A stretch of DNA of 64,000 bases. Origin: Candidatus Bathyarchaeota archaeon. Its GTDB lineage: Archaea > Thermoproteota > Bathyarchaeia > Bathyarchaeales > Bathycorpusculaceae. Within the stretch, counting starts at the first letter, position 1, and the number at the start of each line of letters is the position of its first letter. A program made the translations under genes and the position numbers. The notes under the pieces are model-generated. The model made no database searches. It saw nothing but the letters and a program-made list of their open reading frames with translations, and had not been told where the DNA came from. This document shows positions 48,890 to 62,319 of the stretch, in pieces. The stretch covers positions 17,833-81,832 of the forward strand of contig JAOZHU010000008.1 of assembly GCA_026014705.1 (NCBI GenBank), written 5' to 3'.

Positions 48890-49048
48890 CCTCGTTTTGG
48901 GCATCACTCTCCGCCATTTTTCTTTATTTCCTTCAAATTGAACGGTGCGGTAATGGCTTTTTGTGATTATGTTCATTGTGCTATTGCAGGAAGGCGCCGA
49001 AAACGCTAAATTCTCATGTTGCATGCTCTCTGTAGAATGGCAAGCGTT

Positions 49049-49123
49049 GGGCCGGTAGTTCAGTCTGGTATGAACGCTTGATTCGCAATCAAGAAGCCGC
49101 GGGTTCAAATCCCGCCCGGTCCA
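49049..49123 (+). tRNA. tRNA-Ala (anticodon CGC), integration target
   Basis: Acceptor GGGCCGG/CCGGUCC with the G3:U70 Ala identity pair. Anticodon stem CUUGA/UCAAG with loop UUCGCAA. T arm GCGGG-UUCAAAU-CCCGC. Confidence 0.9.
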
Positions 49124-49125
49124 CT
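49082..49125 (+). repeat. attL (44-bp core, part of intact tRNA-Ala)
   Basis: ttcgcaatcaagaagccgcgggttcaaatcccgcccggtccact is identical to 62236-62279. Confidence 0.9.
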
Positions 49126-49303
49126 CCACCCTTTCCTGCGGGAAAGCGTGGACGGAAATGGGTTGTTTTGGTTGATTGATGGATTCTATGGCTTCTATGC
49201 AGGCTTTTATGGCGTTTTCGCTGATTTTAGAGATGTTTAATCCTAATTCTTTGCCCTTTTCGTAGATTTTTTGGTCTATTGTTACGCTCACTTTTTTTCG
49301 CAT
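49082..49303 (-). CDS. integrase N-terminal fragment int(N) (RHH-like N-terminus)
   Basis: MRKKVSVTIDQKIYEKGKELGLNISKISENAIKACIE...ERVEWTGRDLNPRLLDCE ends at a codon boundary at the att edge. An alternative start is 49339. The 219-aa track ORF is read-through into host DNA. Confidence 0.7.
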
Positions 49304-49423
49304 CCTACTTTCGCTCTCCCCATCCGTACCTATACGCATACATGCGTATATATGCCGTTGGGAGTTGAACTTTATTGTGATTTGAAAGAAAAGAGGGAAA
49401 TATTGTTGTGCACTTTTGATTCC

Positions 49424-51142
49424 TTAAGATTTTATTTGATCAAGTATCCAATGAGGACCGTTTTCGTATCTCAAGTAGTTATCCACGTGAACGTAGGATG
49501 GTTCAGTGTAGGTGTTGGACCAACCAGACATTGATCCGCTTTCCCATGTTTCGCTAAAGAGTGCTACGCCATCATCGGTAAAGCTCCAATTGCCGTTATA
49601 ATATTTGACTAATTGTCCTCCGTCTGCTCCAGTGAATACGTTGTTTATGCTCCTATCTGAATTGTAAGCTGAACCGTCGTAGTATATGCAAGTTCCACCA
49701 GATTGGCCGGATGGCAAATAGTAGTAGACATTGAACCAGAGGTTGTCGTAGTAGCGCCGCATTTCAGCGTAGTACCAAATATTTTCATAGATTGGTGTTG
49801 CACATATCCACGTGGTCATGGCATTGTTTTTGACGTACCGTATGCCCAAATATATTTCGCCATCATCATCGTAGACCGCTACTATGTCGTGCCATTTAGA
49901 CCAGTCATTTGTGTTTCTCGCACAGGCCAGAACCGCGTAATTACCTCCTCCCGCGTCTCCATTTGTGAACATGTCGATGTTGAAGAGTGTTCCGAGTTTG
50001 CAGTCACTTTCTCTATCCCAAGTGAAACTAACGGTCTTTTGTGTGTATGCTTTATCGCTTGTGCTTTCTGAGTAGGTGCAGAATGATCCAAGATAGGAAC
50101 CCCACATGTTGCCCCAAATTTTCTTTTGTAGCATAGCCCATGAATGGCCTTCCCATCCGCCTTCAAAGTAGAAGTAATCTGATACTTCGTCGCATTGGCT
50201 ATAAATGGGTTCTACTGCAAGTGTTTGCCACCAGAAGAAATAACTTAAGTCAGAATAGAACGATTCCATTTCATCAATCAAATACTCAGTTTCAGTGTAA
50301 TCCAAGTTGAATGTTTCGCCAATGAATATTTGCTTATCTGGTTCATTCAAGTAGTTATAGGAATGACAATGACTGGCCCATTGGGTAGTACCGTAATGAT
50401 GTCGCCATTCATTGATCGCGAAAACTTCTTGATGTGTGTCTATGAAATCCCAATAGTCAGAGTATTTAACGCTGTCAAAGAACCAACAGTCACGATTAAT
50501 ATAGAAAGTTCCTGAAGCATTGTTAATTACATTTCCCATTGGAATGCTCTCAAAGGTAAACGGAATAGTGCTATAACTGTTCCACAAATCGTATAACATG
50601 TCTATGTAATCTGCCATATCCTCAAAGCTGTCGTAAGCCAAGTTATTGCCTGTTGGGTCACCGCAGTGAGGGCATGTTTGGTTAGCTTCGACCTCCTCCT
50701 CACCTATGAAAACTTTGACATCACTGTGATCCGCAAGATAATTCGCCAAATAGTAATAGAAATTACTTGCTTCACTATACGTCAATTTTTCTCCTGTGTG
50801 AAAGGTCGTTCTTGTCGCTACATAGATAACGTCATAGTAGTCATCAAAGTAATCTACCCACGTATGAATTCTGCCCGCAACGTAAGAGCCACTGTATAAA
50901 TCAGGGTCATAACCATAAGTAATCTTCACCGCTTGAAAGACTATTCCTTTACGAGTGTATGCTTCGTCAAGCATAGCTTTGACTGTAGCTGGAGTGATAT
51001 TGTTTTCGTCGCATGTCCAAGCTGAAATGAGTATGCCGAAATTACTTGTCCTATCTGTTGCGAAGGCAACATTTTGTGGGCCAAGTGTCACCAGTAGTAG
51101 CAAAGACAACGATACAACGATCCATAGCGATTTTTTGTTCAT
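49424..51142 (-). CDS. secreted aromatic-rich 572-aa protein (possible carbohydrate-active/lectin-like)
   Basis: Signal peptide MNKKSLWIVVSLSLLLLVTLG. Very Y/W/D/N-rich and AT-rich coding. ATGA overlap with the upstream gene. Confidence 0.6.
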   Translation of the reverse strand: MNKKSLWIVVSLSLLLLVTLGPQNVAFATDRTSNFGILISAWTCDENNITPATVKAMLDEAYTRKGIVFQAVKITYGYDPDLYSGSYVAGRIHTWVDYFDDYYDVIYVATRTTFHTGEKLTYSEASNFYYYLANYLADHSDVKVFIGEEEVEANQTCPHCGDPTGNNLAYDSFEDMADYIDMLYDLWNSYSTIPFTFESIPMGNVINNASGTFYINRDCWFFDSVKYSDYWDFIDTHQEVFAINEWRHHYGTTQWASHCHSYNYLNEPDKQIFIGETFNLDYTETEYLIDEMESFYSDLSYFFWWQTLAVEPIYSQCDEVSDYFYFEGGWEGHSWAMLQKKIWGNMWGSYLGSFCTYSESTSDKAYTQKTVSFTWDRESDCKLGTLFNIDMFTNGDAGGGNYAVLACARNTNDWSKWHDIVAVYDDDGEIYLGIRYVKNNAMTTWICATPIYENIWYYAEMRRYYDNLWFNVYYYLPSGQSGGTCIYYDGSAYNSDRSINNVFTGADGGQLVKYYNGNWSFTDDGVALFSETWESGSMSGWSNTYTEPSYVHVDNYLRYENGPHWILDQIKS

Positions 51143-51363
51143 TCATTTTCAGTTTCCTCCATCTTACAACCAGATGGTTGGATACAACCTTCAACTATGA
51201 CAACATGACCGTAAGGTGACTCACACGCCCAGACGACGCGAACATTCTTGTCCGTTTTGAAGAGTTTCTTGCCGAGAGCTCTGGCTACGGCGAGGACATC
51301 GCCCATGTCCCAGTCGGGGCGGTTTTGTGGTTTCACGATTAAGGCTTTCTGAACTTTCGTCAT
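51139..51363 (-). CDS. hypothetical 74-aa protein
   Basis: ATG 51363 overlaps the upstream stop (ATGA) and its own stop overlaps the next ATG (ATGA). Translates to MTKVQKALIVKPQNRPDWDMGDV... Confidence 0.5.
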   Translation of the reverse strand: MTKVQKALIVKPQNRPDWDMGDVLAVARALGKKLFKTDKNVRVVWACESPYGHVVIVEGCIQPSGCKMEETENE

Positions 51364-51695
51364 GGTTTCTTCCTTAATTGATTTTTGTCGCAGCTGTAGC
51401 AGCGTACGCCGGGGATCCACATGCCCGCACGTTTGCAGTGAACTTTGCCGTCGGATACGGCGCCATCCAAGAATAGGCAGAGCACACGCATGGGTTGCGG
51501 TTCTTCAGGCCTCGCGTACACACTAATTTTAAGCTGTGGATTCCCAAGGCTATGCGCTTGATTATGCTGCTGCATGAATGCCTCTATTTTTCTGCTGACT
51601 TTGTCGCCTTCACGTTTACAGATTTCCTGAAATGTTTGCAATGTTGCCTTGTCTATGTAGATGTTGGTGCGGGTTTTCTCGTTTGACTCAGTCAT
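51360..51695 (-). CDS. RHH-domain regulator with C-terminal Cys-rich extension
   Basis: MTESNEKTRTNIYIDKATLQTFQEICKREGDKVSRKIEAFMQ is an RHH pattern. The C-terminus is C..CKRAG...CYSC. Repeat arrays lie immediately upstream. Confidence 0.55.
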   Translation of the reverse strand: MTESNEKTRTNIYIDKATLQTFQEICKREGDKVSRKIEAFMQQHNQAHSLGNPQLKISVYARPEEPQPMRVLCLFLDGAVSDGKVHCKRAGMWIPGVRCYSCDKNQLRKKP

Positions 51696-51715
51696 ACTAT
51701 TCACTTCTTTTATGA

Positions 51716-51741
51716 GTGAATAACACACGTGAATAACACAC
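51716..51741. repeat. perfect 13-bp tandem direct repeat (gtgaataacacac x2)
   Basis: Read directly. The two units span 51716-51728 and 51729-51741. Confidence 0.85.
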
Positions 51742-51812
51742 ACGACACGACTACACGTGATAGTCTCCGCTAACGTAAACGCCATCATTTGATATTCTTT
51801 CAGGCGTTTTTT

Positions 51813-51836
51813 GTGTGTTATTCCTTTGTGTTATTC
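51813..51836. repeat. two inverted-orientation copies of the same motif (gtgttattc), 13-bp spacing
   Basis: gtgttattc at 51815-51823 and 51828-51836 is the reverse complement of the gaataacac core in the 51716-51741 repeats. Confidence 0.8.
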
Positions 51837-52098
51837 AGTCAGTTTGATTCAATTTCTTGGTTAATTCGGCAATCTTTGCCTCGAGTTCTTTGATTCGTTT
51901 GTCTTTGCTGTTCTCGGTCAGTTTTTTGAGGAGTTTGTCGATTTGCGGTTTGAGAGTGTAGCCTAATGCTATGCCGATGGGTAATGCCAACAGAGGCACG
52001 GCGTAGGCTATGATGATGCTGATTAGGATGGCGGCGACTTTGAGAAGTCGTTTGTTGCTCAGGATTTCTTCAAAGAAATCGAGTATGACGTCAAGCAT
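51835..52098 (-). CDS. small membrane protein with C-terminal coiled coil
   Basis: 87 aa. Hydrophobic VAAILISIIIAYAVPLLALPIGIALGY, then KELEAKIAELTKKL. Confidence 0.5.
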   Translation of the reverse strand: MLDVILDFFEEILSNKRLLKVAAILISIIIAYAVPLLALPIGIALGYTLKPQIDKLLKKLTENSKDKRIKELEAKIAELTKKLNQTD

Positions 52099-52264
52099 AC
52101 CCTTTATCCGCTCCCCTGAGTTTTCTTATGCAGGCATCTCCTGTTTCTTGCAAGCGCGGTCGCTGACATTTGTCGCCTACCCAATAGAGCATCCACCCGA
52201 GTAGCCACGTAGCGGTAATCAGCGGCCAGTAGATCAGTAGCAGAAGGCGATTCAACCACTTCAC
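52091..52264 (-). CDS. 57-aa TM mini-protein (below ORF-track cutoff)
   Basis: GTG start overlaps the upstream stop (GTGA), with GAAGGAGGT 6 nt upstream. Translates to (M)KWLNRLLLLIYWPLITATWLLGWMLYWVG... Confidence 0.5.
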   Translation of the reverse strand: MKWLNRLLLLIYWPLITATWLLGWMLYWVGDKCQRPRLQETGDACIRKLRGADKGYA

Positions 52265-52440
52265 GCTTTGACCTCCTTCTCAAAGCATTCACAAACACAA
52301 CAGGGAAAACCTGAAGTAACGCGCTTTCTCCCACAAAGGTTCTCTCGAAGTGCGGGATGTATATCTGGCGCACTACATCGTATGCCTTGTTTACCTTTTC
52401 GACTTACTGCTGATTTGCAGTGTTCAGCGGTCTTGCTCAT
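52261..52440 (-). CDS. 59-aa Cys-rich mini-protein
   Basis: ATGA overlap with the upstream gene. Translates to MSKTAEHCKS...IRCS...LCGRK...FPCCVCECFEKE. Confidence 0.45.
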   Translation of the reverse strand: MSKTAEHCKSAVSRKGKQGIRCSAPDIHPALRENLCGRKRVTSGFPCCVCECFEKEVKA

Positions 52441-52826
52441 GCTTTGATTCCCTCCAGCGCCAACTTTGCCCTAATCAAACCGTCAATGGTGCGGTCTAAG
52501 TAGCGAGCGTCAATGTGCGCTTCGAACCATGTTGTCCAGTCCCAAGCGTTACTACGTGCATACCCCAGCGTCTCCACGTGGTATGCGCCGTTTACGAATA
52601 GGACGATTTGCGGGTGGGGGGCGGTTTTTCCGCCGTCAGGCAGCAGCTTCACCGAAAGTACGTTGCGCTCGTGGTGTGTGTTTTGGTCGGCGTAGGCTAT
52701 GCGTGGCGGGATGCCTGTGCCTGCGAAGATTCGTGTTGGGTATGCTTTGGCGGCTTCCAAGGGGATTTCGCCGTATATTGTGCCGTTGGGTATGCGCTTC
52801 AAACTTTGCACAGCGAAACCTCCCAA
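52437..52826 (-). CDS. hypothetical 129-aa protein
   Basis: The track ORF. The more likely start is GTG at about 52811, 7 nt after GGGAGG. No domain recognised. Confidence 0.5.
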   Translation of the reverse strand: MGGFAVQSLKRIPNGTIYGEIPLEAAKAYPTRIFAGTGIPPRIAYADQNTHHERNVLSVKLLPDGGKTAPHPQIVLFVNGAYHVETLGYARSNAWDWTTWFEAHIDARYLDRTIDGLIRAKLALEGIKA

Positions 52827-53089
52827 TCAAAATGTTTACTGCAATAACGGTAGAAGACGCAGTCTCCGCATCCGAAGTCGCATGGGCATGTTTCTGTGCA
52901 GAATAATGGGCTTTTATGTGTGCATTTTGGGCATTTTGGGTTGGCTTCTTGTTTGGAAGAAGGGAGAGCATGCTCAACGGCGCCGGTCGCTTCCAAGCCC
53001 CTGCTGCTGCCTTCAGGGGACTCTCCGAGATTTGAACTTGGTTTGGGTGATGAATCGGCAAGGTTGCGGTGAGAGAGCGCAGGCGCCAT
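52799..53089 (-). CDS. 96-aa protein with Cys-rich C-terminus
   Basis: Internal ATG of the 154-aa track ORF. C-terminus is CPKCTHKSPLFCTETCPCDFGCGDCVFYRYC. Confidence 0.4.
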   Translation of the reverse strand: MAPALSHRNLADSSPKPSSNLGESPEGSSRGLEATGAVEHALPSSKQEANPKCPKCTHKSPLFCTETCPCDFGCGDCVFYRYCSKHFDWEVSLCKV

Positions 53090-53109
53090 GTTTCTTTTCC
53101 CCAAGAAGC

Positions 53110-53289
53110 CTAACCCCTGCTTGGTAGGGTACGTTGCAGTGTATCGCAGGGTATCGGGTGGTACTCGCGGAGGTTGACGAATTCGCAGTGGAATCTTCCG
53201 CAGGCGCAACTCAGCGTTTTTGTGTCGCTGTCCCAGACCATGTGCTCGTGGCATACGGTGCATTCAAAGCTGCTGCGGTACCGCGTCAT
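53110..53289 (-). CDS. 59-aa zinc-ribbon mini-protein
   Basis: Translated manually as MTRYRSSFECTVCHEHMVWDSDTKTLSCACGRFHCEF... The ATG overlaps the upstream stop (ATGA). Confidence 0.5.
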   Translation of the reverse strand: MTRYRSSFECTVCHEHMVWDSDTKTLSCACGRFHCEFVNLREYHPIPCDTLQRTLPSRG

Positions 53290-53456
53290 TGGAATCCTTC
53301 CTTGATGATTTTCTTCAGCTTCTCAGTACATTCAGGGCATAAATCGCGTTGAAAATCGTCGCCATCATCGTCTACGTTTGAGCCGAAAACTACCCAATTT
53401 AAGTCGTTTTGATTCTCGATTTCTTTGCCACAGTTATCGTAACAATAAAGTTTCAT
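53286..53456 (-). CDS. 56-aa zinc-ribbon mini-protein
   Basis: GGAGG lies 10 nt upstream. Translates to MKLYCYDNCGKEIEN...DLCPECTEKLKKIIKEGFQ. Confidence 0.5.
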   Translation of the reverse strand: MKLYCYDNCGKEIENQNDLNWVVFGSNVDDDGDDFQRDLCPECTEKLKKIIKEGFQ

Positions 53457-53521
53457 TTTGATATCGCCTCCAACTTCGCATACGCAGGTTTCTCAATTTT
53501 GTGAAGTTGCCGCATTCCATT

Positions 53522-54070
53522 TTACTCCTTTTTTTCGGTGAATGTATTTTTAGTGATGACTGCGGCTTTGGTGTTGACACAGATTTTGCCGTTTTTGCGT
53601 ACAATTGACTGCGGCGACTTTATGTTGACTTCTGCAGTGCTGGAACCAAAAGTGATGATTTCTACAGTGCTGGAACCATAAACACAGATTTTCTTAGGAT
53701 TAACTGCAAAACCTACAACATCTTTGAACACTTTTTCTTCGCCTTCAAAAGCAACCTGCACTTTAACATCATTAACCAACTGCATAAAAACAGCTTCTTC
53801 AATCGCACTTTTACGCTGTAAATACCACTCAGGCAAGGTATCCTGTTCATCCTCTGTATACGTCCATTTGGAAATAGGCATCATCTGCCGCGGGTCAGGA
53901 GGGGTAACTTCGACAAAAACTCGATCTCTGACTTTAATAGCGTCACAATCGTCTAAGGGTTTTAGACCAAATTCCTCTTCTATTTTTGCATGGCTATTTG
54001 TTTTAAATGAACCTAAGACTTCGGCTTTGCCATTGCGCCACGCAATAACGTAGCTTTTCATTTTGCACAT
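53522..54070 (-). CDS. hypothetical 182-aa protein
   Basis: Start chosen at ATG 54070, 6 nt after GGAGGC. No domain recognised. Confidence 0.5.
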   Translation of the reverse strand: MCKMKSYVIAWRNGKAEVLGSFKTNSHAKIEEEFGLKPLDDCDAIKVRDRVFVEVTPPDPRQMMPISKWTYTEDEQDTLPEWYLQRKSAIEEAVFMQLVNDVKVQVAFEGEEKVFKDVVGFAVNPKKICVYGSSTVEIITFGSSTAEVNIKSPQSIVRKNGKICVNTKAAVITKNTFTEKKE

Positions 54071-54273
54071 GTTTTTGCCTCCAACTTCGCATACGCCTCC
54101 CGTGCCAATTGCGCGCATGTTTTCGGTTTAACTGAGGGAATGTAAGCGGTGAGGTTAGAGCAAACGTGAGTTTCGCCATCAGCGGTTTCGCTTGTTATGC
54201 AGCGGCGGTCACCATACTCGCAATGAGGTAGGGCACAGTAAAATTCAAGTGTTATTTTTCTCCCTGTTTTCAA
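54058..54273 (-). CDS. 71-aa Cys-rich protein
   Basis: FYCALPHCEYGDRRC...HVCSN...CAQ pattern. Lies in the tightly packed minus-strand chain. Confidence 0.4.
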   Translation of the reverse strand: MKTGRKITLEFYCALPHCEYGDRRCITSETADGETHVCSNLTAYIPSVKPKTCAQLAREAYAKLEAKTCAK

Positions 54274-54281
54274 CGGCGTAA

Positions 54282-54449
54282 CTAAGCCTCCTGCCCAACG
54301 GTAACATTCGTTTCGGGATATCGCATCAGAAAGTTGCGTATGGCCTCTTTGACGATTTCCCCGCGGCTTCTGAATCCATGCTTACCAACGAGTTTATCGA
54401 TTTCATCAACCATTTCGTTGGGGAGTTTTATCGTGGTGTAGTCGTTCAT
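54282..54449 (-). CDS. ribbon-helix-helix (CopG/Arc/MetJ-type) regulator, 55 aa
   Basis: Not in the track. MNDYTTIKLPNEMVDEIDKLVGKHGFRSRGEIVKEAIRNFL. GAGGGG lies 8 nt upstream. Confidence 0.6.
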   Translation of the reverse strand: MNDYTTIKLPNEMVDEIDKLVGKHGFRSRGEIVKEAIRNFLMRYPETNVTVGQEA

Positions 54450-54450
54450 T

Positions 54451-54474
54451 CTATTACCCCTCTATTACTAATAG
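54451..54474. promoter_or_regulatory. candidate RHH operator: palindrome CTATTAcTAATAG plus extra CTATTA half-site
   Basis: The perfect palindrome at 54462-54474 and the half-site at 54451-54456 lie directly upstream of the RHH gene start (54449). Confidence 0.4.
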
Positions 54475-54537
54475 ACTACAACAAATCGTGAAGAAGAAAC
54501 AGAAAGAAGGATGGAAAATCGATCTGCCAGATGAAAC

Positions 54538-55527
54538 CTAACTATGCTTGTATATTTCAATGGCTATGAAAACCGCAAAAACCAAAACACCGATGGTTAC
54601 TGCAAAAACATACGGGTTATTGTACCATAAGTCACTCTGCGAAGACTCTGTCGGCGTTGGATCAGGAGAAATACCCAGTAACTCTAAAAGCGACATATAG
54701 ACTTCTTTTTCCTCATCGTCTATAGTTAGGAGACCGAAATAATTTTCCTTTTCAGGCACTAAACCCGTGTTGTCGTACATTTCGTAAATGAAGATTTTAT
54801 CGACTTCAGGGGTTAATCCAACAATGTTATCGACAAGATACTCTGCTTGACCGGTTTCTGTGTAGCCCTCTGTCGCTGAGGGTCTTCCGATTTCAGTTAC
54901 CCAGACGTTCTTGTTAGTTATTCCTTTTAAAGTGTCTATTGTCGCAACGTTTGCGGATAACTCATCATAAAGGTGCACTCCCAGATAGTCATAGTAGAAT
55001 CTTATTTCTGTGTTGTTGTAGACGGCATTGAAGTAATCCATCCAATTTTCTATTGGAGCTAACGCCCCAGAAATTACCAACGCGCCTGTTTCGTTCTTGA
55101 TTATTTGATAGGCGCTTTTCAGCATCTCAGTGTAGTTTTCAGGTGGAATATAGGCAGCTCCGTTCGGTTCGTTCCAAATCTCCCATGCGTCTATTTCCTG
55201 TGCTATGGGGTTATCGAGAATGTCGTAGAGCGTGTTGTTCCAAAGTTCAGGGGTCAAATCCGCAGCGTTTACGGTTCTGTTGTCGATTATTGCCAAAATT
55301 TTTATGTTGTGAGCTTTCAGGGCAGACATAGCGACGTCGCTTTCGTTGTATTGATAATCCATTCTAACCCACCTAACTTTCAGCTCTGAGAGGCGATCAA
55401 GCGTGGAACTACGATAATCTTCTGGGTGCAAACACACGTTTACTTCATAATTTGGTGAAGCATAAGCTAAAGTAATCAAAACTAAGAATGAAACAATGAT
55501 GATGTTTGTGGCCACTGTTTTTTTCAT
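54538..55527 (-). CDS. secreted clan GH-A (GH5-like TIM-barrel) glycoside hydrolase, C-terminally membrane anchored
   Basis: Signal peptide MKKTVATNIIIVSFLVLITLAYA. WEIWNEPN (acid/base NEP) and NVWVTEIG (nucleophile) motifs. PDPTPTE linker plus a TM helix ending IYKHS. Confidence 0.65.
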   Translation of the reverse strand: MKKTVATNIIIVSFLVLITLAYASPNYEVNVCLHPEDYRSSTLDRLSELKVRWVRMDYQYNESDVAMSALKAHNIKILAIIDNRTVNAADLTPELWNNTLYDILDNPIAQEIDAWEIWNEPNGAAYIPPENYTEMLKSAYQIIKNETGALVISGALAPIENWMDYFNAVYNNTEIRFYYDYLGVHLYDELSANVATIDTLKGITNKNVWVTEIGRPSATEGYTETGQAEYLVDNIVGLTPEVDKIFIYEMYDNTGLVPEKENYFGLLTIDDEEKEVYMSLLELLGISPDPTPTESSQSDLWYNNPYVFAVTIGVLVFAVFIAIEIYKHS

Positions 55528-55564
55528 TTTTTGTGCCTTAAGAATAGAAAAAAAGGTTGTGGGA

Positions 55565-56221
55565 TTAGAACTTTTTGATGTACCCGACACAGATACCCAC
55601 CGCCGCCAAGGCAACCACAACGCCCATCAGACCATACATTGCCGTCGTTACCGGGGCAGTCCGCGAATAGTTAGCTATGGTCACCACAATATAACCCGCT
55701 ATTTGACTGTTTTGCGGGTGCCCAGCAACGTTAATGTCAGTCAACGTGAAACCTGAATGCGCTGTTTTGTAGATCTGACTTGAGCCACTGTACACTGTCA
55801 AATATGTGCCGTCGTATTGAAAAGTCACAGTTTTGGAGTATGAGGAAACGGTTTTTTGGTACACTGTTCCTGTCTTTGTCCAGTTAGTGTATTTGTACAA
55901 GTATTCGGTCAGTTGGCCGCCTTCAGCTACGGTGTCGTGCTCCCAGCTTATTCCCCATCCGTCATGATCTGGATTTGCGATTTGCACTAAAAACCATGCT
56001 GTGTCATTGGTTGGCGCAGAAACTTCATGCAAATTTGAGAAATCCACAGTTACAGTGAAATTGCTATATGAGTTATCCAGCGTATCCCAGTACTCTGTGT
56101 ATATTTGGTCTTCGTTGAATGTGTATACTTCATTTGTTGTCGCAGCATAGACAGGAGTTGCTATAGCGATGCACAGCACTGCCAATACTGCAAGAGTCAG
56201 AAGTGCGTTCCGCCGGTGCAT
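55565..56221 (-). CDS. secreted beta-sandwich protein with C-terminal TM anchor (candidate envelope/structural protein)
   Basis: Start at ATG 56221, 11 nt after GGGAGG. Signal peptide LLTLAVLAVLCIAIATPVYA. TM helix ending GYIKKF. The upstream part of the 265-aa track ORF is rejected. Confidence 0.55.
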   Translation of the reverse strand: MHRRNALLTLAVLAVLCIAIATPVYAATTNEVYTFNEDQIYTEYWDTLDNSYSNFTVTVDFSNLHEVSAPTNDTAWFLVQIANPDHDGWGISWEHDTVAEGGQLTEYLYKYTNWTKTGTVYQKTVSSYSKTVTFQYDGTYLTVYSGSSQIYKTAHSGFTLTDINVAGHPQNSQIAGYIVVTIANYSRTAPVTTAMYGLMGVVVALAAVGICVGYIKKF

Positions 56222-56238
56222 TTGCGGATCCGCCTCCC

Positions 56239-56346
56239 TTAGAACTTGCCAAATTTCTTCAGCAAGCCAAGGACCATTCCAAGCATGGCGAAGGTGATGA
56301 TTAGGGGCATCCATTCGAGCACAGTGGATGTTATGTCTGAGCTCAT
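56239..56346 (-). CDS. 35-aa hydrophobic mini-protein
   Basis: GGAGG lies 9 nt upstream of the ATG. Translates to MSSDITSTVLEWMPLIITFAMLGMVLGLLKKFGKF. First gene of the leftward unit. Confidence 0.45.
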   Translation of the reverse strand: MSSDITSTVLEWMPLIITFAMLGMVLGLLKKFGKF

Positions 56347-56385
56347 TCGCTTTATCCTCCAAAAGATACTCTCATGTCCCAAATA

Positions 56386-56425
56386 AAACATTTGTTAAAC
56401 AAAATGGTTAACAATGTTTAAATTT
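56386..56425. promoter_or_regulatory. divergent control region: imperfect inverted repeat and TATA-like box
   Basis: AAACATTTGTT (56386-96) and AACAATGTTT (56410-19) form a 10/11 inverted repeat. TTTAAATTT (56417-25) lies about 28 nt upstream of the leaderless-looking ATG at 56449. Confidence 0.4.
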
Positions 56426-56448
56426 AAGTGTTTTGTTATATTTGGTAC

Positions 56449-56619
56449 ATGGAAAAGAACGAGTGCGGCAGACTTAACCTCTACCTTCCAAAAACCCTCA
56501 TTGCTTGGCTAACAAAACAAGCAGAAAGCAACCATCGAAGCCTCAACAACTACGTTACCGTTGTTCTTGAAGACCATAAAAAAGAGAAGGAGACAGCACC
56601 ATGTATATCGGTGCATTAA
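56449..56619 (+). CDS. ribbon-helix-helix regulator, 56 aa
   Basis: MEKNECGRLNLYLPKTLIAWLTKQAESNHRSLNNYVTVVLEDH is an RHH pattern. First gene of the rightward unit. Confidence 0.55.
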   Translation: MEKNECGRLNLYLPKTLIAWLTKQAESNHRSLNNYVTVVLEDHKKEKETAPCISVH

Positions 56620-56843
56620 TCCAGTTCCCAGACGGCGCACGGAAAATAGTTGAGTCAATAAGCGAACACGACTCCATAGCCATAGCCAAATTCATGGGCA
56701 AAATCGCCAAGTACGCCAAAAAAGAAAACAAGCTTGTGAAGGTGTGCGCTGACGACGTCAAAGCTCTCAAAGCTTTGTCGAAAGCGCTCGGCGGCGTAAC
56801 GGTTGAATGGGGAGTCATAGAGAGGGAGTACCCATGCGAATAA
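56601..56843 (+). CDS. hypothetical 80-aa protein
   Basis: GAAGGAGA lies 8 nt upstream. Overlaps both neighbours. Confidence 0.45.
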   Translation: MYIGALIQFPDGARKIVESISEHDSIAIAKFMGKIAKYAKKENKLVKVCADDVKALKALSKALGGVTVEWGVIEREYPCE

Positions 56844-58384
56844 ACTTGATTAAAATCAGTAGCGTCCTGATTTTTGCACTTCTGCTTTTAACAGCAACAG
56901 CTCCTAATTTTGCGAAAGCAATAGAGTCACAAACGGTAACCGTTTTTCCTGTTGCTGACGCCATGTGTGACAGCTTTAAACCTGACGAGAATTTCGGGTA
57001 TGCGAGCACTTTTACCGTTGGCGTCCAAGCAGATACGAGCATAAGAAAATATTACGCTAAATTTGACTTGTCAAGCTTCAACCTATCAAACATAATTAGT
57101 GCAAAGCTAAGGTTTTTGCCATTTCAAACGTCAAGCTCCTTCGCGATGGACATACACGAATGCGAAGATTACTGGCAGGAACCTACAATTTGTTGGAATA
57201 ATGCACCGTTCCAACAAAGCAAAGTTGGCGATTGCTGGATTGGCGACACTGGCATATGGTACGAGTTAAACGTTACATCCTTCGTAAAAACAGAATATGA
57301 TAAAGTCTGGAGTGTTGTATTTACTAACCAAACGGCAGTGGCAAACGCGGTAGCCTATTTCTTTAGCCGCGAAGACAGTCAATACTCTCCGAGGCTTATC
57401 ATAGAGTACATTCCACAACAAAGCACGCCTCCATCCGCTTCAGGCGGGCAATGGACATTAACGGGGGTAAGCGGTAACTGGAGCTACTCTACGGATCCAC
57501 TTCTGCTCGCGGGGGAAGGATGGAACGCTTCCCCCGCTTTCGCCAACTTCACCCACGGAAACCTGAACAAGACCTTTGCTGATGGGGAAGGCTTCCAAAT
57601 CAACTTCACCGTCAGCATTCAAGGCAACCGTCGTGAGTGGTGGTGGATTGAAGGCACCAAACGATTCTACTTTAGCCTTGGGATTCACGGTACTAATGAC
57701 GCAGCATATACGTTGTTCTACATTGCGCATGAACAAGGGTTTGCTTGGAGCAGCAGCGAAGCAAAAGTTGGCACACAACAGCAATACAATATTGGCAAGC
57801 CATGGCCGAGCTTGCAGGTTGGCGAAACAGTTGACACAACAGGCGCCGTGTACTATATACAAGTAATCCGTGTCAACGCCACTACGGCTAAAGTTGTATA
57901 TGCCACTAACGTGTTTGGCAACGACTTGGAAATTACTGAAGGCAGCATAAAAACCTTTAACGAAACGCTTACAGTGGATTCGTCAGTTTGGGATAATCCA
58001 GTGCTTAACTTGTACGCTGGTCATGACGGCAGTGGCACCTTTGAGTGCGTTTTTGGCGATGTGTACGTAGGCACCATAACAGGTTTTGAAGATCAAACAC
58101 CAACGCAACTTAACCCTAACCCGTTCCAATGGCTAATCGACGGTTTCAATTTTATTTGGGGTTTGGCTACCATGATAGGCGCCTTTGCAGGCGCGTTTTT
58201 GCCAATTTTGCCATGGATATTCCTGTTTTACGCTTTAGATGTAATAGTGACAAGCGTCCAAGTCGGCAGCGTACAACCAATCGGCAAATTCGCCCTGATG
58301 ATCTGGGAATTCCTGCTCAAGGTATGGTTCGTGCTCGTGCGTATTGGCCAACTCATCTGGGATGCGATAACTTTCTGGACGTGA
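56834..58384 (+). CDS. spike-like secreted protein: signal peptide, DNRLRE/CBM-like N-domain, C-terminal multi-TM region
   Basis: Start at ATG 56834 after GAGGGAG. PVADAMCD...NFGYAS...YYAKFDLSSF...AKLRF...YWQEPTICWNNAP pattern. The last ~90 aa form 2-3 hydrophobic helices. Confidence 0.6.
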   Translation: MRINLIKISSVLIFALLLLTATAPNFAKAIESQTVTVFPVADAMCDSFKPDENFGYASTFTVGVQADTSIRKYYAKFDLSSFNLSNIISAKLRFLPFQTSSSFAMDIHECEDYWQEPTICWNNAPFQQSKVGDCWIGDTGIWYELNVTSFVKTEYDKVWSVVFTNQTAVANAVAYFFSREDSQYSPRLIIEYIPQQSTPPSASGGQWTLTGVSGNWSYSTDPLLLAGEGWNASPAFANFTHGNLNKTFADGEGFQINFTVSIQGNRREWWWIEGTKRFYFSLGIHGTNDAAYTLFYIAHEQGFAWSSSEAKVGTQQQYNIGKPWPSLQVGETVDTTGAVYYIQVIRVNATTAKVVYATNVFGNDLEITEGSIKTFNETLTVDSSVWDNPVLNLYAGHDGSGTFECVFGDVYVGTITGFEDQTPTQLNPNPFQWLIDGFNFIWGLATMIGAFAGAFLPILPWIFLFYALDVIVTSVQVGSVQPIGKFALMIWEFLLKVWFVLVRIGQLIWDAITFWT

Positions 58385-58388
58385 AAAC

Positions 58389-58907
58389 ATGCCACAAGTG
58401 AAAATGAAACTTGAAATCCGAGACAAAGACCAAACATTCACCACCAAAGCCACATACGACCCAGACACGCATCTGGCAATCGCACAGCGCAAGTTCCGAC
58501 AGCAATTCCCCACCAAATACGTAGTCTCCCCAGACGACATAGTAAAACATATTACAACACGTGGACGGATCGAGTTGAAAGCCGATGTCAGCGTAGAAAC
58601 CCGCCATAGCATTCGCATAGCGCCGAACCCAGATTGGAAATCCATGTCTGACGAGCAGAAAATAGCCACGGAACATAAACCGCCAGATGTGCCAGACAAA
58701 AGCTTCAAAATTGACCTGCACGACCTGAAAACACTATACCAAGAACTCAAAAACATGCTTGACTACTTCACCGAAAGAAGCTACTGGGACAGCTTAATCA
58801 AAAAAGGCAAACTCTCCATAAGCACAATCCTGATCCTGCTCACCGCAGGCGGCGGACTATTCTACCTCATCCGCGACATAATCCTGCCAATCTTCGGAGC
58901 GCACTAA
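58389..58907 (+). CDS. hypothetical protein with C-terminal TM helix
   Basis: 172 aa. Ends LSISTILILLTAGGGLFYLIRDIILPIFGAH. Confidence 0.5.
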   Translation: MPQVKMKLEIRDKDQTFTTKATYDPDTHLAIAQRKFRQQFPTKYVVSPDDIVKHITTRGRIELKADVSVETRHSIRIAPNPDWKSMSDEQKIATEHKPPDVPDKSFKIDLHDLKTLYQELKNMLDYFTERSYWDSLIKKGKLSISTILILLTAGGGLFYLIRDIILPIFGAH

Positions 58908-58910
58908 AGC

Positions 58911-59288
58911 ATGGATGACAGCGAGAAAGCGCGACTCAAGAAAGAACTCATGCAGCGCTTAGGACTAAGCACCAAAGAAGAAGCCATAGCCAAATCAGTC
59001 ACCGAACTAACCGACAAAGACAAACTAAAAATGATGACAAACCTGCTTCAAGGCGAGGATGCTTCATTCGCCACGCTCAGCGTCATAGCAGACAGATACA
59101 AGCTGCCATGGCTACGCCAAACCGTAGACGAAAGACTCGAGCTTCGCATGAGCGTGAGCGGGTGGAAAGCCAACCAAATAGTCACGGTAGCAACAGAGAA
59201 AATGAAGGAGATCCGCCGAAGCCTCAGAGACAGGATATTCCATCGTGGCGAGAAAGGCAGCAAATGGCAAGTAGAGGAATTCGAATGA
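58911..59288 (+). CDS. hypothetical 125-aa protein
   Basis: Charged, helical. Lies 3 nt after the upstream stop, and its own stop overlaps the next ATG. Confidence 0.45.
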   Translation: MDDSEKARLKKELMQRLGLSTKEEAIAKSVTELTDKDKLKMMTNLLQGEDASFATLSVIADRYKLPWLRQTVDERLELRMSVSGWKANQIVTVATEKMKEIRRSLRDRIFHRGEKGSKWQVEEFE

Positions 59289-59374
59289 TAGAGCTACTGG
59301 TGCATTTCTTGATTGGCTTTGTTGTTGGATTCGTTATTGGAATCTCATTGCATCCCATTTCCAAGGGTGATTAA
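59285..59374 (+). CDS. 29-aa TM mini-protein
   Basis: ATGA overlap with the upstream gene. Translates to MIELLVHFLIGFVVGFVIGISLHPISKGD. Confidence 0.35.
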   Translation: MIELLVHFLIGFVVGFVIGISLHPISKGD

Positions 59375-59376
59375 AA

Positions 59377-59715
59377 ATGAGTTTTCAACCTAAAAAGAAA
59401 TATGATATCGAGATGCAAACACTCCAAACGCTTAGCCAGAAACTCGCAGCGAAACGGAACGACCTTGCCGACTACGCTTGCAATCTTAACGCTGACAAAC
59501 TCGCAATACTCGACTTGTACATCAAAGCCTATGAAAAAGAGGGTCCTGAATTTACCGACTGGTTGAAAGGCATGCGCGAGCAACTTAAGCTCCAAGGCGA
59601 AGCCTTGTGGATCATGCACGCAGACGTGCTCACAAACCTTGGTTTGAAAGTTGGAAAGACTGGAATGAGGGAGATCAGTGGAAAACGCAGCAATGGTCCA
59701 GACGCCCCAGTATAG
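59377..59715 (+). CDS. hypothetical 112-aa protein
   Basis: Starts 2 nt after the previous stop. Helical, no domain recognised. Confidence 0.45.
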   Translation: MSFQPKKKYDIEMQTLQTLSQKLAAKRNDLADYACNLNADKLAILDLYIKAYEKEGPEFTDWLKGMREQLKLQGEALWIMHADVLTNLGLKVGKTGMREISGKRSNGPDAPV

Positions 59716-60475
59716 TGAAGCGTTAGCTGACATAGTTTCACAGTTTTTTAAACAGTACAAGTATCCCGTCTGCGTCATCTATGGCAACCCCGACACAGGA
59801 AAAAGCGACACCGCCTGCCTATTCGCCGAAATCGCACTCAACGAGAAATGCATAGACTACTTTGCGTCGAATATGAGTACTTATGGTCATGGCGAGAAAA
59901 TTACTTCGTTACAGGATGTCAACTACTGGTTTGCTCATCAAGTCGGAAAGAAACTGTTTATTCTTGATGAAGCTGGAATCCATGATGATACGCGCTCGCC
60001 GCTTAGCGGATTAACCCGCAAGATACGCCACAGCGTCTTTGTGACCCGCAAGTTCTTTGGTCATTGGATCTTCATTCTGCAGGATATCAAGGACTTGGAT
60101 ACTTGGAAAGACAGCGAGCTCACAGGCATGATCGTCAAGAAGCAAGTGTTCGGCAACGAGTTTGTTGCAAAGATCAAGTGCAAGTGGAACGAGGACCTCA
60201 TAACTGTCCGTGACTTCCCGAAAGCCACATTGCCATTTGACACGTTGGATATTGCACCATTCACTCTCGAACGGCAACTCACAGACGAAGAACTGGAGCT
60301 GAAGGGCACGCCGAATAAAGTCGCGTACCTCTATGCGGCGACTGGGAATTTTAGCGTTATTTGTAAGCAGTTGAAGCAGGATACTGGGCAAGAGTGGAAG
60401 CCTATGCAAGTGAAGCGTGCGCTTCAGCAGTACATACGGCAAACCCTGCGAGCACATGAATCGCCTGAAAATTAA
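59678..60475 (+). CDS. P-loop NTPase (Walker A/B)
   Basis: Walker A is GNPDTGKS (aa 36-43) and Walker B is KLFILDEAG. The start could be the internal Met at 59693. Confidence 0.65.
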   Translation: MENAAMVQTPQYSEALADIVSQFFKQYKYPVCVIYGNPDTGKSDTACLFAEIALNEKCIDYFASNMSTYGHGEKITSLQDVNYWFAHQVGKKLFILDEAGIHDDTRSPLSGLTRKIRHSVFVTRKFFGHWIFILQDIKDLDTWKDSELTGMIVKKQVFGNEFVAKIKCKWNEDLITVRDFPKATLPFDTLDIAPFTLERQLTDEELELKGTPNKVAYLYAATGNFSVICKQLKQDTGQEWKPMQVKRALQQYIRQTLRAHESPEN

Positions 60476-60577
60476 AAAACCCGTTAATTAACGCAGTGCG
60501 TAGTGTTGAGGTACCATCTCAAGTTTTGTTAAGTTTTCGGGTTTAGGCGTGGTTTCTCCATGCTTTAGACTAATAAT

Positions 60578-60940
60578 CTAAAGTTCGCTACGTAACAAAG
60601 GACGTTTTTCATGTGAGAATTTGGGGAGTTGCTGTTGACCGCAATAAAGATTTTCAGACATCTTAATTTGCATCTTGGTCTTCTTAGTCAGAGCAGCTCG
60701 CGTAATTGCAGTTCCCTGGGATAGACTATAACTCTTTGCAAAGTTGTTCTTCCGAGTTTGAGTCTTAATCGCTAATGTCCAATGCGGAAGAATTCTTTTT
60801 GTCTCAAGGTATATGTTTGGGTCAGCGACGCATCTCTCACAAGCGAAAGCTTTGACGTATCCGCTGACGCTAGTCAAGCCGATTACTATGCCGTGGTCGC
60901 TGTGGAACCCGCATACGCAGCAGTTCATTCCCCGTTCCAT
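60578..60940 (-). CDS. zinc-ribbon-containing hypothetical protein
   Basis: 120 aa. N-terminal CCVCG...CERC. Confidence 0.4.
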   Translation of the reverse strand: MERGMNCCVCGFHSDHGIVIGLTSVSGYVKAFACERCVADPNIYLETKRILPHWTLAIKTQTRKNNFAKSYSLSQGTAITRAALTKKTKMQIKMSENLYCGQQQLPKFSHEKRPLLRSEL

Positions 60941-61278
60941 CCGATAACCGTACCCGCCAACCGCTCCCAGTGGCGCTCACATAAACCCACCCTTCGTTTG
61001 TCGCCTTTCGCCGTCTTGTACTGCACATAAAGAAGCGGATTCATTTGGCAATCTTTGCATTTGTGATACTCTGCGAGGCGCATGGCATTAAGCGGTCGGC
61101 TAATGTCAGCGCCATCATGCCGCATTGGAAGGTCTCGCTCGTCTGAAATTATATATTTCTCAAGAGCATCGTGTTCTTGATGGACTTTGCATGCTGAAAC
61201 ACGATTTTTTACTTGTACATGTTGTTTTTCCATGACACCAATCAAGCAATTTCCTCCACTAAATTCTTTCAAATTCAC
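60925..61278 (-). CDS. Cys/His-rich hypothetical protein
   Basis: 117 aa. HKCKDC...CERH pattern. Lies downstream of int(C) on the same strand. Confidence 0.4.
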   Translation of the reverse strand: MNLKEFSGGNCLIGVMEKQHVQVKNRVSACKVHQEHDALEKYIISDERDLPMRHDGADISRPLNAMRLAEYHKCKDCQMNPLLYVQYKTAKGDKRRVGLCERHWERLAGTVIGWNGE

Positions 61279-61368
61279 AAATAGATGCTAATTTTCCATG
61301 AACAGCAAATAAGTGAGCATATGTGAAGTCGCCAAGGCTACACTCTTTTCTTAAAGATATGCCAAGCC

Positions 61369-62262
61369 TCAAACTTTCACCTTCTCTTGTATCTCGCTTA
61401 TACCCTGAAACACACGAGTCCTCAAGTCTACAATCAACGCAGGATTGAAGTAGTGCTGCATGAACACGCTTCCCGTTACCCTGCCATGCAGAAAATCAAT
61501 CTCTTGCTGCTTGAGATACTTTGTCATAAACGTGGCATGTGCCTCACGCACGTCGCTGAACCGCAAAGGTAAAACCCGCTTCGTGCTCGTTTGAATCGTG
61601 AACTTGTTAAGCTGCTTACTTTCCGCTACGTGATACACCAAGTCTTGTGGCACAAATGACACAAATGCCTTTTTCGTATTCCGCAGAAAGAGCTCTTTAA
61701 ACTTGTAATGCTCCAGCACCGCCTTGTCATGCACGTAGTAATCAGCGAGCTTTCGCTCCGCCGCCAACTTAATAACCAAATTGTAAGCCGAAACAGCTTC
61801 AACAAGCCGCAAACCCGTCACCGCTAAAAAGTCCACGAATACAGCAAACTCAGGACGCAACCGCTTCAAATCACGGATCCACTGCCAAATTTCCTCAGGG
61901 TTCTGTATTTTATTTAGTCGCTCAATAAACACATCATCCTTGCTTTTACCTGCCCACTTCAAATTATACTGGGATGCCAACCGCCGCCAATCATCATACT
62001 CACCACGAAACTTGGCCAACGCACTAAGCGAAGCCATAACCAACCGCCGCTTCCCAGCACTAAACCCAAGCAACGCCGACAAATCACGCCCTAAAAAGCA
62101 ATCCTGAAAACTCCGAGCGTAATTCGCCATGTACCGCGCAACATGCGGCTTATGCTTCCCCTCACTCAACAACCACTCTTCAAACTTAACCCAGAACTCC
62201 CAACCGAGGGAGTCGCGAGAACCGCGGGTTTTCGCTTCGCAATCAAGAAGCCGCGGGTTCAA
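61369..62262 (-). CDS. SSV-type tyrosine integrase, C-terminal catalytic fragment int(C)
   Basis: AVTGLRLVEA (Arg), DVREAHATF, FLHGRVTGSVFMQHY (His-x-Arg ... Tyr) contexts. The 5' end runs into attR. Codons NPRLLDCE are the antisense of the tRNA T-arm and anticodon stem. Confidence 0.8.
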   Translation of the reverse strand: MNPRLLDCEAKTRGSRDSLGWEFWVKFEEWLLSEGKHKPHVARYMANYARSFQDCFLGRDLSALLGFSAGKRRLVMASLSALAKFRGEYDDWRRLASQYNLKWAGKSKDDVFIERLNKIQNPEEIWQWIRDLKRLRPEFAVFVDFLAVTGLRLVEAVSAYNLVIKLAAERKLADYYVHDKAVLEHYKFKELFLRNTKKAFVSFVPQDLVYHVAESKQLNKFTIQTSTKRVLPLRFSDVREAHATFMTKYLKQQEIDFLHGRVTGSVFMQHYFNPALIVDLRTRVFQGISEIQEKVKV

Positions 62263-62279
62263 ATCCCGCCCGGTCCACT
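62236..62279 (+). repeat. attR (44-bp core, orphan tRNA-Ala 3' half)
   Basis: Identical to 49082-49125. Followed by the host oligo-T tract. Confidence 0.9.
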
Positions 62280-62305
62280 ATTTCTGAAGTTCTTGGGGTG
62301 GGTGC

Positions 62306-62319
62306 TTTTTTCTTTTTTT
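62306..62319 (+). terminator. oligo-T tract, displaced terminator of tRNA-Ala
   Basis: TTTTTTCTTTTTTT lies 27 nt after attR, where the original tRNA 3' flank would be. Confidence 0.4.

Follow-up and report, generated by a model that had tools for sequence, protein, structure and literature searches.

A probable integrated circular element in a Bathyarchaeia tRNA-Ala gene, with an SSV-type integrase gene split between its two ends

The stretch of Bathyarchaeia DNA analysed here (64,000 nucleotides of contig JAOZHU010000008.1, assembly GCA_026014705.1; hereafter the window, to which coordinates refer unless a locus is named) carries a tRNA-Ala(CGC) gene whose 3' part recurs exactly at the far side of 13.1 kb of enclosed DNA. 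At a probability that we put at roughly 85%, positions 49126-62235 together with one copy of this repeat represent a circular double-stranded DNA element that has integrated into the genome of an uncultured Bathyarchaeia archaeon. The finding that carries this explanation is that the repeat, which we treat as an attachment site (att), lies inside an integrase gene that is divided between the two ends of the enclosed DNA and becomes whole when those ends are joined. An earlier sequence-only reading of the window had described attL/attR architecture of a site-specifically integrated element, and this is now supported by the split integrase gene, by relatives of the element, by occupied and unoccupied sites in other genomes and by base composition.

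The insertion site and the direct repeat

The features that define the insertion are as follows.

49049-49124, plus strand: host tRNA-Ala(CGC), intact; its 3' part from the anticodon loop on is attL; identical gene, beside the same upstream neighbour, in four Bathyarchaeia metagenome-assembled genomes
49082-49125, plus strand: attL, left copy of the 44-bp core; exact repeat
62236-62279, plus strand: attR, the 44-bp core at the right end, where it forms an orphan tRNA 3' half; exact repeat, with no tRNA 5' half upstream
49082-49339, minus strand: Int(N), 5' integrase fragment with a ribbon-helix-helix (RHH; CcdA-like) domain and linker; continues in antisense through att into the tRNA; in relative L009 the N-terminus of the intact integrase is 76% identical
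61369-62262, minus strand: Int(C), 3' integrase fragment with the whole catalytic domain; PF16795, conserved residues

The tRNA gene was placed by ARAGORN and scored 69.8 bits as a tRNA (RF00005) in an Rfam scan of the window, which returned nothing else. From the anticodon loop the repeat extends to 1 nt beyond the ARAGORN 3' end, and even with eight mismatches permitted it has only its two copies in the window; the sequence beside it differs between the copies on either side. Because it is exact over 44 nt within 64 kb, the repeat is not a product of chance. The left copy completes an intact tRNA whose acceptor stem, read from the sequence as GGGCCGG/CCGGTCC, sets G3 opposite T70. The sequence-only reading had claimed this identical pair of copies, a left copy completing a tRNA with G3:U70 and an orphan 3' half on the right, and in each respect it was confirmed. 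It had also placed an oligo-T tract behind the right copy; a T-rich tract is present at 62306-62320, although it starts about 26 nt 3' of attR and not immediately behind it.

The enclosed DNA differs from its surroundings in composition. Its GC content is 45.4% against 48.9% in the left flank, and host segments of equal length (13.1 kb) span 47.1-50.3%, none falling under 47.1%. Measured by tetranucleotides, the element lies 0.0147 from the host profile and host segments lie 0.0084 +/- 0.0007 from it (z = 8.6), so that GC and k-mer comparison with the flanks marks the element as a composition outlier. The shift towards AT, which the sequence-only reading had called visible, is statistically real and modest in size.

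A hairpin, CTTTCC TGC GGGAAAG, is supplied by the element at 49125-49147, directly 3' of the tRNA, and is kept in the related locus L013. It could substitute for the native tRNA terminator in the integrated state.

The integrase gene is split by the insertion

Both att copies are translated in one shared frame (...WTGRDLNPRLLDCE...) by minus-strand open reading frames (ORFs). One of these, 61369-62262, starts inside attR (...NPRLLDCEAKTRGS...); the other, 48680-49339, runs from the left end of the element through attL and on antisense through the tRNA (...WTGRDLNPRLLDCESS...). When position 62235, one att copy and position 49126 are joined as they would be in an excised circle, a single uninterrupted ORF of 374 amino acids (aa) results. 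The rejoined protein matches PF07362 (CcdA ribbon-helix-helix) at residues 14-52 and PF16795, "Archaeal phage integrase", at residues 198-354 (E value 6e-11; 42.9 bits against a cut-off of 27), and att covers codons 72-86, in the linker. Since the rejoined ends give a 374-aa PF16795 ORF, the repeat is tied to the integrase; the alternative raised in the sequence-only reading, that it might be a generic tRNA duplication unrelated to the recombinase, is not the case, att lying within the integrase ORF. That reading was also right to see a tyrosine integrase at the edge of the element, although the description was incomplete, the gene being split between both edges. Because the integrase is of the split SSV type, the link between repeat and recombinase holds without an empty site.

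The catalytic part of the protein is well conserved. In an alignment of 21 sequences R229, K274/K275, R316, G337, R338 and Y348 never vary and H336 hardly varies, this histidine forming with its neighbours the motif H336-G337-R338. The Y348 motif EIDFLHGRVTGSVFMQHY aligned with the stretch IIDFIQGRKPTRVLTQHY of the SSV1 integrase, the last residue of this stretch being 314, at an overall hhalign probability of only 8.7%. Residue 314 of the SSV1 integrase is its nucleophile. The annotated integration site of SSV1 is likewise 44 bp long and occupies codons ~64-78 of its integrase gene. Taken together, the sequence evidence supports assignment of the window integrase to the SSV type, called "suicidal", in which the attachment site lies inside the enzyme's own gene.

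Homologues of the rejoined protein number 375 in a protein collection (members carry P-numbers), and PF16795 is present in most of them. About half of those listed are 330-387 aa long and cover 93-100% of it, many with both Pfam domains; most of the others listed are 224-330 aa long and cover just its last 59-83%, and in the alignment such short homologues, proteins of ~295 aa among them, begin at or after the att-encoded segment. That segment varies across the long homologues (WTGRDLNPRLLDCE, VRPPGFEPGSSTWQ, WCGRRDLNPGRQRGR, GRVGFEPTTSSLE) and corresponds to antisense tRNA T-arm sequence, for example GFEPGSS, DLNPGRQ and GFEPTTS. The differing antisense tRNA 3' halves thus amount to exchangeable, tRNA-derived attP cassettes inside the integrase gene. 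P0001, annotated as a 266-aa "integrase [Candidatus Bathyarchaeota archaeon]", is 100% identical to Int(C). Look-ups by exact sequence, made with the annotated Int(C) and with two host proteins from the flanks, gave no match, probably owing to differently called start codons. The rejoined integrase had no match in phage records (tblastn), and its profile had none in the PDB. One collection member, P0047 (468 aa), combines PF00145 with PF16795.

These observations lead us to a mechanism of integration that we regard as very probable. In the free form, as reconstructed from the ORFs and seen in intact relatives, the element carries one 374-aa integrase gene encoding an RHH domain, a linker and a C-terminal SSV-type tyrosine recombinase; the 44-bp attP in the linker (codons 72-86) matches the host tRNA-Ala(CGC) gene exactly over its 3' part. 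By homology, the integrase would recombine attP with the tRNA gene. The tRNA stays intact after integration because the element brings an identical 3' half (attL). The rest of the outcome is also seen in the window: an orphan 3' half (attR) at the far end, and an integrase gene divided between Int(N) on the left and Int(C) on the right, the latter with a complete catalytic domain but deprived of start codon and promoter. As the gene is split, excision should need the intact integrase of a related element acting in trans (compare PMC8371274).

The fusion of an RHH domain to the integrase, together with the Int(N) fragment left after insertion, suggests a further idea: Int(N) may stay in use as a stand-alone RHH protein, in which case integration itself would create a regulator.

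The same site in other genomes and circular relatives

The identical tRNA-Ala gene with the same upstream neighbour (77-88% identity) was found in four other Bathyarchaeia metagenome-assembled genomes of the GTDB set. In GCA_964632845.1 a related Int(N) (80% identity) comes next after the tRNA, and an exact att copy bounds the element at its other end; the same site is thus taken there by a different member of the element family. The other three genomes have no gene of the family behind the tRNA, where we found a T-run followed by cas7 and cas5, a PadR gene, and other DNA. In L015 (JAWBOE010000015.1), cas7 and cas5 lie directly behind the same tRNA-Ala at 1032-2866. Because the downstream genes of these three unoccupied sites are unlike the right flank of the window, they are not precise empty sites.

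Relatives of the element, designated by L-numbers, provide the intact form of the integrase gene. In L001 and in L009 the identical 44 bp sits within an intact integrase gene. L009 spans ~19.4 kb with an intact 375-aa integrase gene, and its 103-bp exact terminal overlap shows it to be a circular contig. Window positions 61853-62279 align to L009 11159-11588 and positions 49078-49401 to L009 11541-11864; from this collinearity it follows that both ends of the element are contiguous through one att copy in a circular relative. L001 holds P0004, the second-closest full-length integrase homologue; considered as a relative in cargo as well, L001 was ruled out, as only the integrase and att are in common.

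Further circles occur in the family. A terminal overlap of 91 bp closes L024 to a circle of 10,963 bp, which has the gene order of the window element; its integrase gene is intact across the contig junction and its attP differs. On contig Ga0272448_1002783 (L031/L032) a 14,159-bp unit is present in 1.5 copies at 99.99% identity. On contig Ga0315282_10002297 (L038/L054) we observed two copies of a ~17.6-kb unit, their identity being 99.97% over an 11.4-kb stretch and 88.7% over one of 1.36 kb. Each of these two contigs is either a circular genome assembled past one unit or a tandem array, and neither has this integrase type. L010, L011 and L099 are integrated relatives, and each has the same att at its Int(C) end. 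L094 (Ga0172365_10007665) contains a mini-element of ~4.8 kb between att-like copies at 453-496 and 5280-5323 (3-4 mismatches to the 44-mer), which encodes Int(N), Int(C) and a distant ATPase (28% identity) and may be a reduced or satellite-like family member.

Gene content of the element

The likely genes form two divergent operons meeting at ~56.4 kb. They were called from ORFs, Pfam and PHROG matches, transmembrane (TM)-like segments and identity to the loci of relatives, and are listed here from left to right.

49424-51142, minus strand: 572-aa secreted protein (signal/TM at residues 3-28, no C-terminal anchor); no Pfam or PHROG match
51139-51420, minus strand: conserved small protein, 93-aa ORF; 60-88% identical in L003/L004, L009, L013 and L024
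51360-51695, minus strand: conserved 111-aa protein, likely start MTESNEK; 57-73% identical in L003/L004, L009 and L013, called at 111 aa in relatives; no Pfam match
51717-51835, no strand: intergenic repeats, GAATAACAC twice and then its reverse complement twice, ~75 bp away; upstream of the 111-aa gene; 81% identical to L009
51835-52098, minus strand: 87-aa membrane protein with a TM-like segment and coiled-coil tail; 60-65% identical in L009 and L013
52437-52826, minus strand: conserved 129-aa protein; 47-78% identical in L003/L004, L009, L010, L023 and L024; no Pfam or PHROG match
52847-53089, minus strand: leader-like stretch of the relatives' C5 DNA methylase gene; tblastn of the L009 methylase aligns residues 1-76 only
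53110-53456, minus strand: two small ORFs of 59 and 56 aa with CxxC motifs; the 56-aa one is 52% identical in L009 and L010
53522-54273, minus strand: 198-aa and 71-aa ORFs, variable cargo; no family match; weak homologues of the 198-aa ORF only in L047 and L051
54282-54449, minus strand: CopG-type ribbon-helix-helix regulator, 55 aa; PF01402, E value 5e-10; conserved in L003, L009 and L010
54538-55620, minus strand: glycoside hydrolase (GH)-like protein, membrane-anchored (N-terminal signal/TM, C-terminal TM); PF11790, E value 6e-10; relatives have a GH99-like protein in this slot
55565-56221, minus strand: ~218-aa secreted protein with C-terminal TM anchor and basic tail (TM-like segments); relatives have 214-218 aa at this position
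56239-56346, minus strand: 35-aa peptide MSSDITSTVLEWMPLIITFAMLGMVLGLLKKFGKF with acidic N-terminus, one TM and basic C-terminus; 52-93% identical across loci where detected
56428-56619, plus strand: RHH/Arc-like small regulator, first gene of the plus operon; weak Arc, TraY and HicB matches, E value ~1e-3, below cut-offs; 84% identical in L009
56601-56843, plus strand: conserved 80-aa soluble protein without TM segment; 57-80% identical in relatives
56807-58384, plus strand: 525-aa spike-like membrane protein; PF24517, E value 8e-24; signal peptide, TM segments, 10 N-x-S/T sites
58389-58907, plus strand: 172-aa protein with C-terminal TM anchor (142-166), family core; 31-82% identical in most loci, 24-29% in two distant ones
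58911-59288, plus strand: 125-aa soluble protein, family core; 33-92% identical across loci
59377-59715, plus strand: 112-aa soluble protein, family core, overlapping the ATPase gene start; 29-91% identical across loci
59678-60475, plus strand: P-loop NTPase, 265 aa; homologous to the pleolipovirus NTPase (HRPV-1 VP8, HRPV-3 ORF5)
60578-61278, minus strand: two small ORFs of 120 and 117 aa beside Int(C); the 117-aa one 42-66% identical in relatives, the 120-aa one 73% in L022

The slot beside Int(N) is variable and holds a 28%-identical homologue of the 572-aa protein in the circular L024 and proteins of 1147-1413 aa in other relatives; Pfam gave no match for the large 1202-aa and 1411-aa proteins of relatives, so that no replication protein was identified there. 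The C5 methylase gene of relatives carries PF00145 (L009 291-1085), and the methylase domain is missing in the window element, where the 76-aa leader lies in an unusually GC-rich kilobase (51.5%). Among the small genes, the 111-aa protein has what can be read as an RHH-like N-terminus, the intergenic repeats at 51717-51835 are a candidate operator or origin, and the CxxC motifs of the 59-aa and 56-aa ORFs suggest zinc fingers. A scan for sigma-70 promoters and terminators gave fewer sites than shuffled sequence, a model that is not meaningful for an archaeon.

A conserved membrane-protein and NTPase core

The NTPase provides the one hallmark link to a known virus group. It matches phrog_1979 (E value 9e-16), of which HRPV-3 ORF5 is a full-length member (E value 3e-137), and hhalign paired it with HRPV-3 ORF5 at 98.7% (3e-16) and with a VP8 alignment of HRPV-1, HRPV-3, HRPV-10 and His2 at 99.2% (E value 3.5e-19, 178 columns). 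HRPV-3 was the sole tblastn match of the protein in phage records, and among 50,697 such records the NTPase family is confined to Pleolipoviridae; 72,556 PLSDB plasmid records gave no match. A profile search of the PDB returned just weak RFC-type AAA+ matches, and Pfam gave the NTPase family sub-threshold generic P-loop matches alone, including Zot in 4 of 26 members. The gene order is also shared: a spike gene, a gene for an anchored protein of ~175 aa and the NTPase gene follow one another as they do in HRPV-1, HRPV-3, HRPV-10 and His2.

Homologues of this NTPase fall into 79 clusters in the protein collection, Bathyarchaeia where named, and occur at no fewer than 134 loci (at least) in JGI metagenomes. 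From locus to locus the 35-aa peptide, the C-terminal part of the spike, three proteins of 172, 125 and 112 aa and the NTPase keep recurring; the integrase differs, as do the accessory genes. A constant membrane-protein and NTPase core with a variable remainder fits the pattern expected of a particle-forming module. We found no description of this element family in the literature searched; it is widespread and, it seems, undescribed. An ATPase homologue on a 3.3-kb contig (P0152, 67% identity) is labelled Candidatus Jordarchaeaceae (Asgard), which reflects either a binning error or a wider host range.

The 525-aa spike-like protein begins with a signal peptide, followed by a CBM96 head (43-200), a conserved beta-sandwich core at ~215-425 (~210 aa) and, at the C-terminus, three conserved hydrophobic helices ending in LIWDAITFWT. 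The head is exchangeable and is absent in 8 of 11 homologues (the window's own not counted).

Few genes of the family are better conserved than the one for the 35-aa peptide, a candidate virion membrane protein. Its acidic-hydrophobic-basic charge layout recalls small virion coat or membrane proteins. In relatives it is near-identical to the C-terminal anchor and basic tail of the adjoining 214-218-aa secreted protein (in L003, ...VPLIVTFAMLGMVLGLLKKFGKI; loci L003 5446-6232 and L009 4548-5316), so that it looks like a free-standing copy of its neighbour's anchor. Together with the 172-aa anchored protein, it may be an analogue of pleolipovirus proteins missing from the element.

DNA flanking the element

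To the right of the element, 1.7 kb of flank (62280-64000) falls within the window; its GC content, 46.0%, is below that of the left flank. Positions 63273-63581 encode a DUF5658 protein (PF18902, E value 8.5e-9), a family that also includes an SSV1 ORF. The right flank may derive from an older island or from another element of which a remnant is left. Left of the tRNA, two host membrane proteins on the minus strand (47054-47611 and 47812-48324) have poly-proline tails, PPPPPPPTAY and PPPPPPPS.

Nature of the element

Several results weigh against the explanation proposed here. For this exact element we found no empty site and no excised circle, and an exact scan of JGI metagenome contigs did not contain the attB (empty-site/attR) junction; the check for an empty site or a circle, named in the sequence-only reading, gave three unoccupied sites in related genomes and circular relatives, and not the exact junction. 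The right flank of the window is not syntenic with related genomes, the genes downstream of the tRNA differing in each. Neither a capsid protein nor a replication protein was identified among the element's ORFs by Pfam and PHROG or among the large proteins of relatives, and scans of IMG/VR with ATPase and integrase profiles confirmed no relatives. Homology to pleolipovirus VP3, VP4, ORF6 and ORF7 was not detected in any core gene (hhalign, alignments of 3-4 sequences). The AlphaFold2 (AF2) models of the spike, built from a 12-sequence alignment, are of low confidence (predicted local distance difference test scores of 53.7 and 61.7) and in Foldseek searches of the PDB and BFVD matched lectin, ConA-like and CBM folds only. 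Finally, a copy with a split integrase may be trapped.

That the repeat arose by chance or segmental duplication of a tRNA fragment, the enclosed DNA being an ordinary genomic island formed without site-specific recombination, is an explanation to which we give almost no weight. Although tRNA genes generally border variable regions, and the right flank shows no synteny among relatives, such a duplication accounts neither for the ORF that is continuous across the rejoined ends, nor for the identical att inside intact integrase genes of relatives, one of them circular, nor for the same att bounding a related element in another genome. Given site-specific integration, the nature of the cargo is a separate matter, and we regard a virus, as opposed to a plasmid, as an even call. 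The cargo could be the particle-forming module of a non-lytic, membrane-enveloped virus only partly like pleolipoviruses. In its fullest form, which we advance tentatively and at rather less than even odds, this proposal sees the provirus of a new family of non-lytic membrane-enveloped Bathyarchaeia viruses, with an NTPase-centred module shared anciently with pleolipoviruses, a lectin-fold spike with swappable carbohydrate-binding heads, and the 35-aa peptide. An integrative plasmid or cryptic element that integrates alike and forms no virion is also a serious candidate, at odds not far short of even; its module would alter the cell surface or transport DNA, in vesicles or otherwise. Genes for a capsid, packaging or a known fusogen were not found by Pfam, PHROG or hhalign, IMG/VR yielded no member of the family, the surface enzymes (GH, CBM96) could be of use to the host, and most integrated elements of the related Thaumarchaeota have been classed as cryptic, one of them with a split SSV1-like integrase (PMC6563490). 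Against a plasmid stand the restriction of the NTPase family, among phage records, to Pleolipoviridae and its absence from the plasmid records, the fact that the conserved core consists exactly of the membrane-protein and NTPase genes, which fits a morphogenetic module, and the lack of any Pfam family for conjugation (VirB4/TraG-type transfer ATPases) or partition in any ORF, the sole ATPase of the element being of the VP8 type.

Two affiliations with known viruses are less probable than a new family. The NTPase homology, the similar gene order, circles of 11-19 kb against 7-17 kb in pleolipoviruses (PMC10919331) and tRNA integration as in AvPV1 would all suit a true provirus of the pleolipovirus lineage (Pleolipoviridae or 'Thalassapleoviridae'-like) whose spike is a VP4-type fusogen diverged beyond recognition. 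We nonetheless consider this improbable: the spike alignment scored 0.1% against four VP4 sequences in hhalign, VP3, ORF6 and ORF7 gave nothing, no HRPV fusogen stood in the top 50 of three Foldseek searches with the two spike models, and the conserved ectodomain is just ~210 aa and all-beta. On these models the spike looks lectin-like, unlike the pleolipovirus fusogen VP4, and because the hallmark fusogen was sought and not found, we would not class the element as a pleolipovirus. SSV-type integrases are typical of the spindle-shaped fusellovirus group, and a spindle-shaped (fusellovirus-like) provirus would explain the SSV-type integrase, the 44-bp att as in SSV1 and the small hydrophobic proteins, with Huangdivirus, a Bathyarchaeia provirus, as precedent (PMC10848311). 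It is nevertheless very improbable, since hhalign found no match to SSV1 VP3, VP2, C792 or five other SSV1 proteins (VP1 not among them), and the ATPase scored against SSV1 B251 at a generic AAA+ level (78%, E value 2e-5) as against 99.2% for VP8.

Relation to known systems

That self-splitting integrases of the SSV type insert elements into tRNA genes has been known for about twenty years. The mechanism being known, the value of the present case lies in a clean, internally proven example from Bathyarchaeia, an abundant uncultured sediment lineage with few described mobile elements, and in the entry that it offers to an undescribed family with several circles of 11-19 kb. The sole hallmark link of this family is the pleolipovirus NTPase; if particles exist, pleomorphic-type viruses would reach Thermoproteota. 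Should the proposal of a new virus family be true, it would be the first such lineage outside Euryarchaeota-type phyla, and virus-prediction pipelines would apparently have missed it despite its abundance in sediments and digesters.

Among known systems, the integrase most resembles those of SSV-type elements (SSV1 and SSV2 of Sulfolobus, pTN3 and pT26-2 of Thermococcales, NitEve-E3 of Thaumarchaeota), with which it has in common both PF16795 and an attP inside the integrase gene. Attachment sites of such integrases are typically 40-50 bp long, and integration separates Int(N) from Int(C) (PMC8371274); the annotated att of SSV1 equals the tRNA-derived att of the window element in length. Suicidal integrases have been described as a trait of hyperthermophiles (PMC8371274), and the window element differs from these systems in that its host belongs to Bathyarchaeia. 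Its Int(N) is a CcdA-like RHH domain (PF07362), common to many full-length homologues, and outside the tyrosine motif the SSV1 integrase has no detectable similarity to it. The cargo of fuselloviruses is unrelated to that of the window element.

With Pleolipoviridae and 'Thalassapleoviridae' (HRPV-1, HRPV-3, His2, and AvPV1 in tRNA-Gly) the element shares a homologous NTPase, a similar circular genome size and tRNA integration, and in both a spike-sized, anchored secreted protein is encoded upstream of an anchored protein of ~175 aa and the NTPase. It differs in having another integrase type and in that a VP4-type fusogen, VP3, ORF6 and ORF7 were not detected, a VP4-type spike or fusogen with a V-shaped fold being the hallmark of pleolipoviruses (PMC10919331). 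It differs also in host phylum, Thermoproteota, the known hosts of pleolipovirus-like viruses being Halobacteria, Methanonatronarchaeia, Methanomassiliicoccales and Archaeoglobi (PMC10919331).

The cryptic integrated elements of Thaumarchaeota (Krupovic et al. 2019) are likewise small, most under 20 kb, and carry an integrase among genes that are mostly unannotatable (PMC6563490); one of them, NitEve-E3, lacks viral hallmark genes and has an SSV1-like integrase that is split (PMC6563490). Their att sites are mostly shorter than 26 bp, down to 8 bp (PMC6563490), against 44 bp here, and unlike them the window family has a recognisable conserved module and a virus-type NTPase. The viruses described from Bathyarchaeia so far, Fuxiviridae, Kunpengviridae, Chiyouviridae and Huangdiviridae (Duan et al. 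2024, PMC10848311), come from a survey of head-tailed, filamentous or spindle-shaped viruses recognised by their capsid proteins, in which pleolipoviruses are unmentioned (PMC10848311). Huangdivirus, a provirus with a tyrosine integrase (PMC10848311), shares its host class with the window element.

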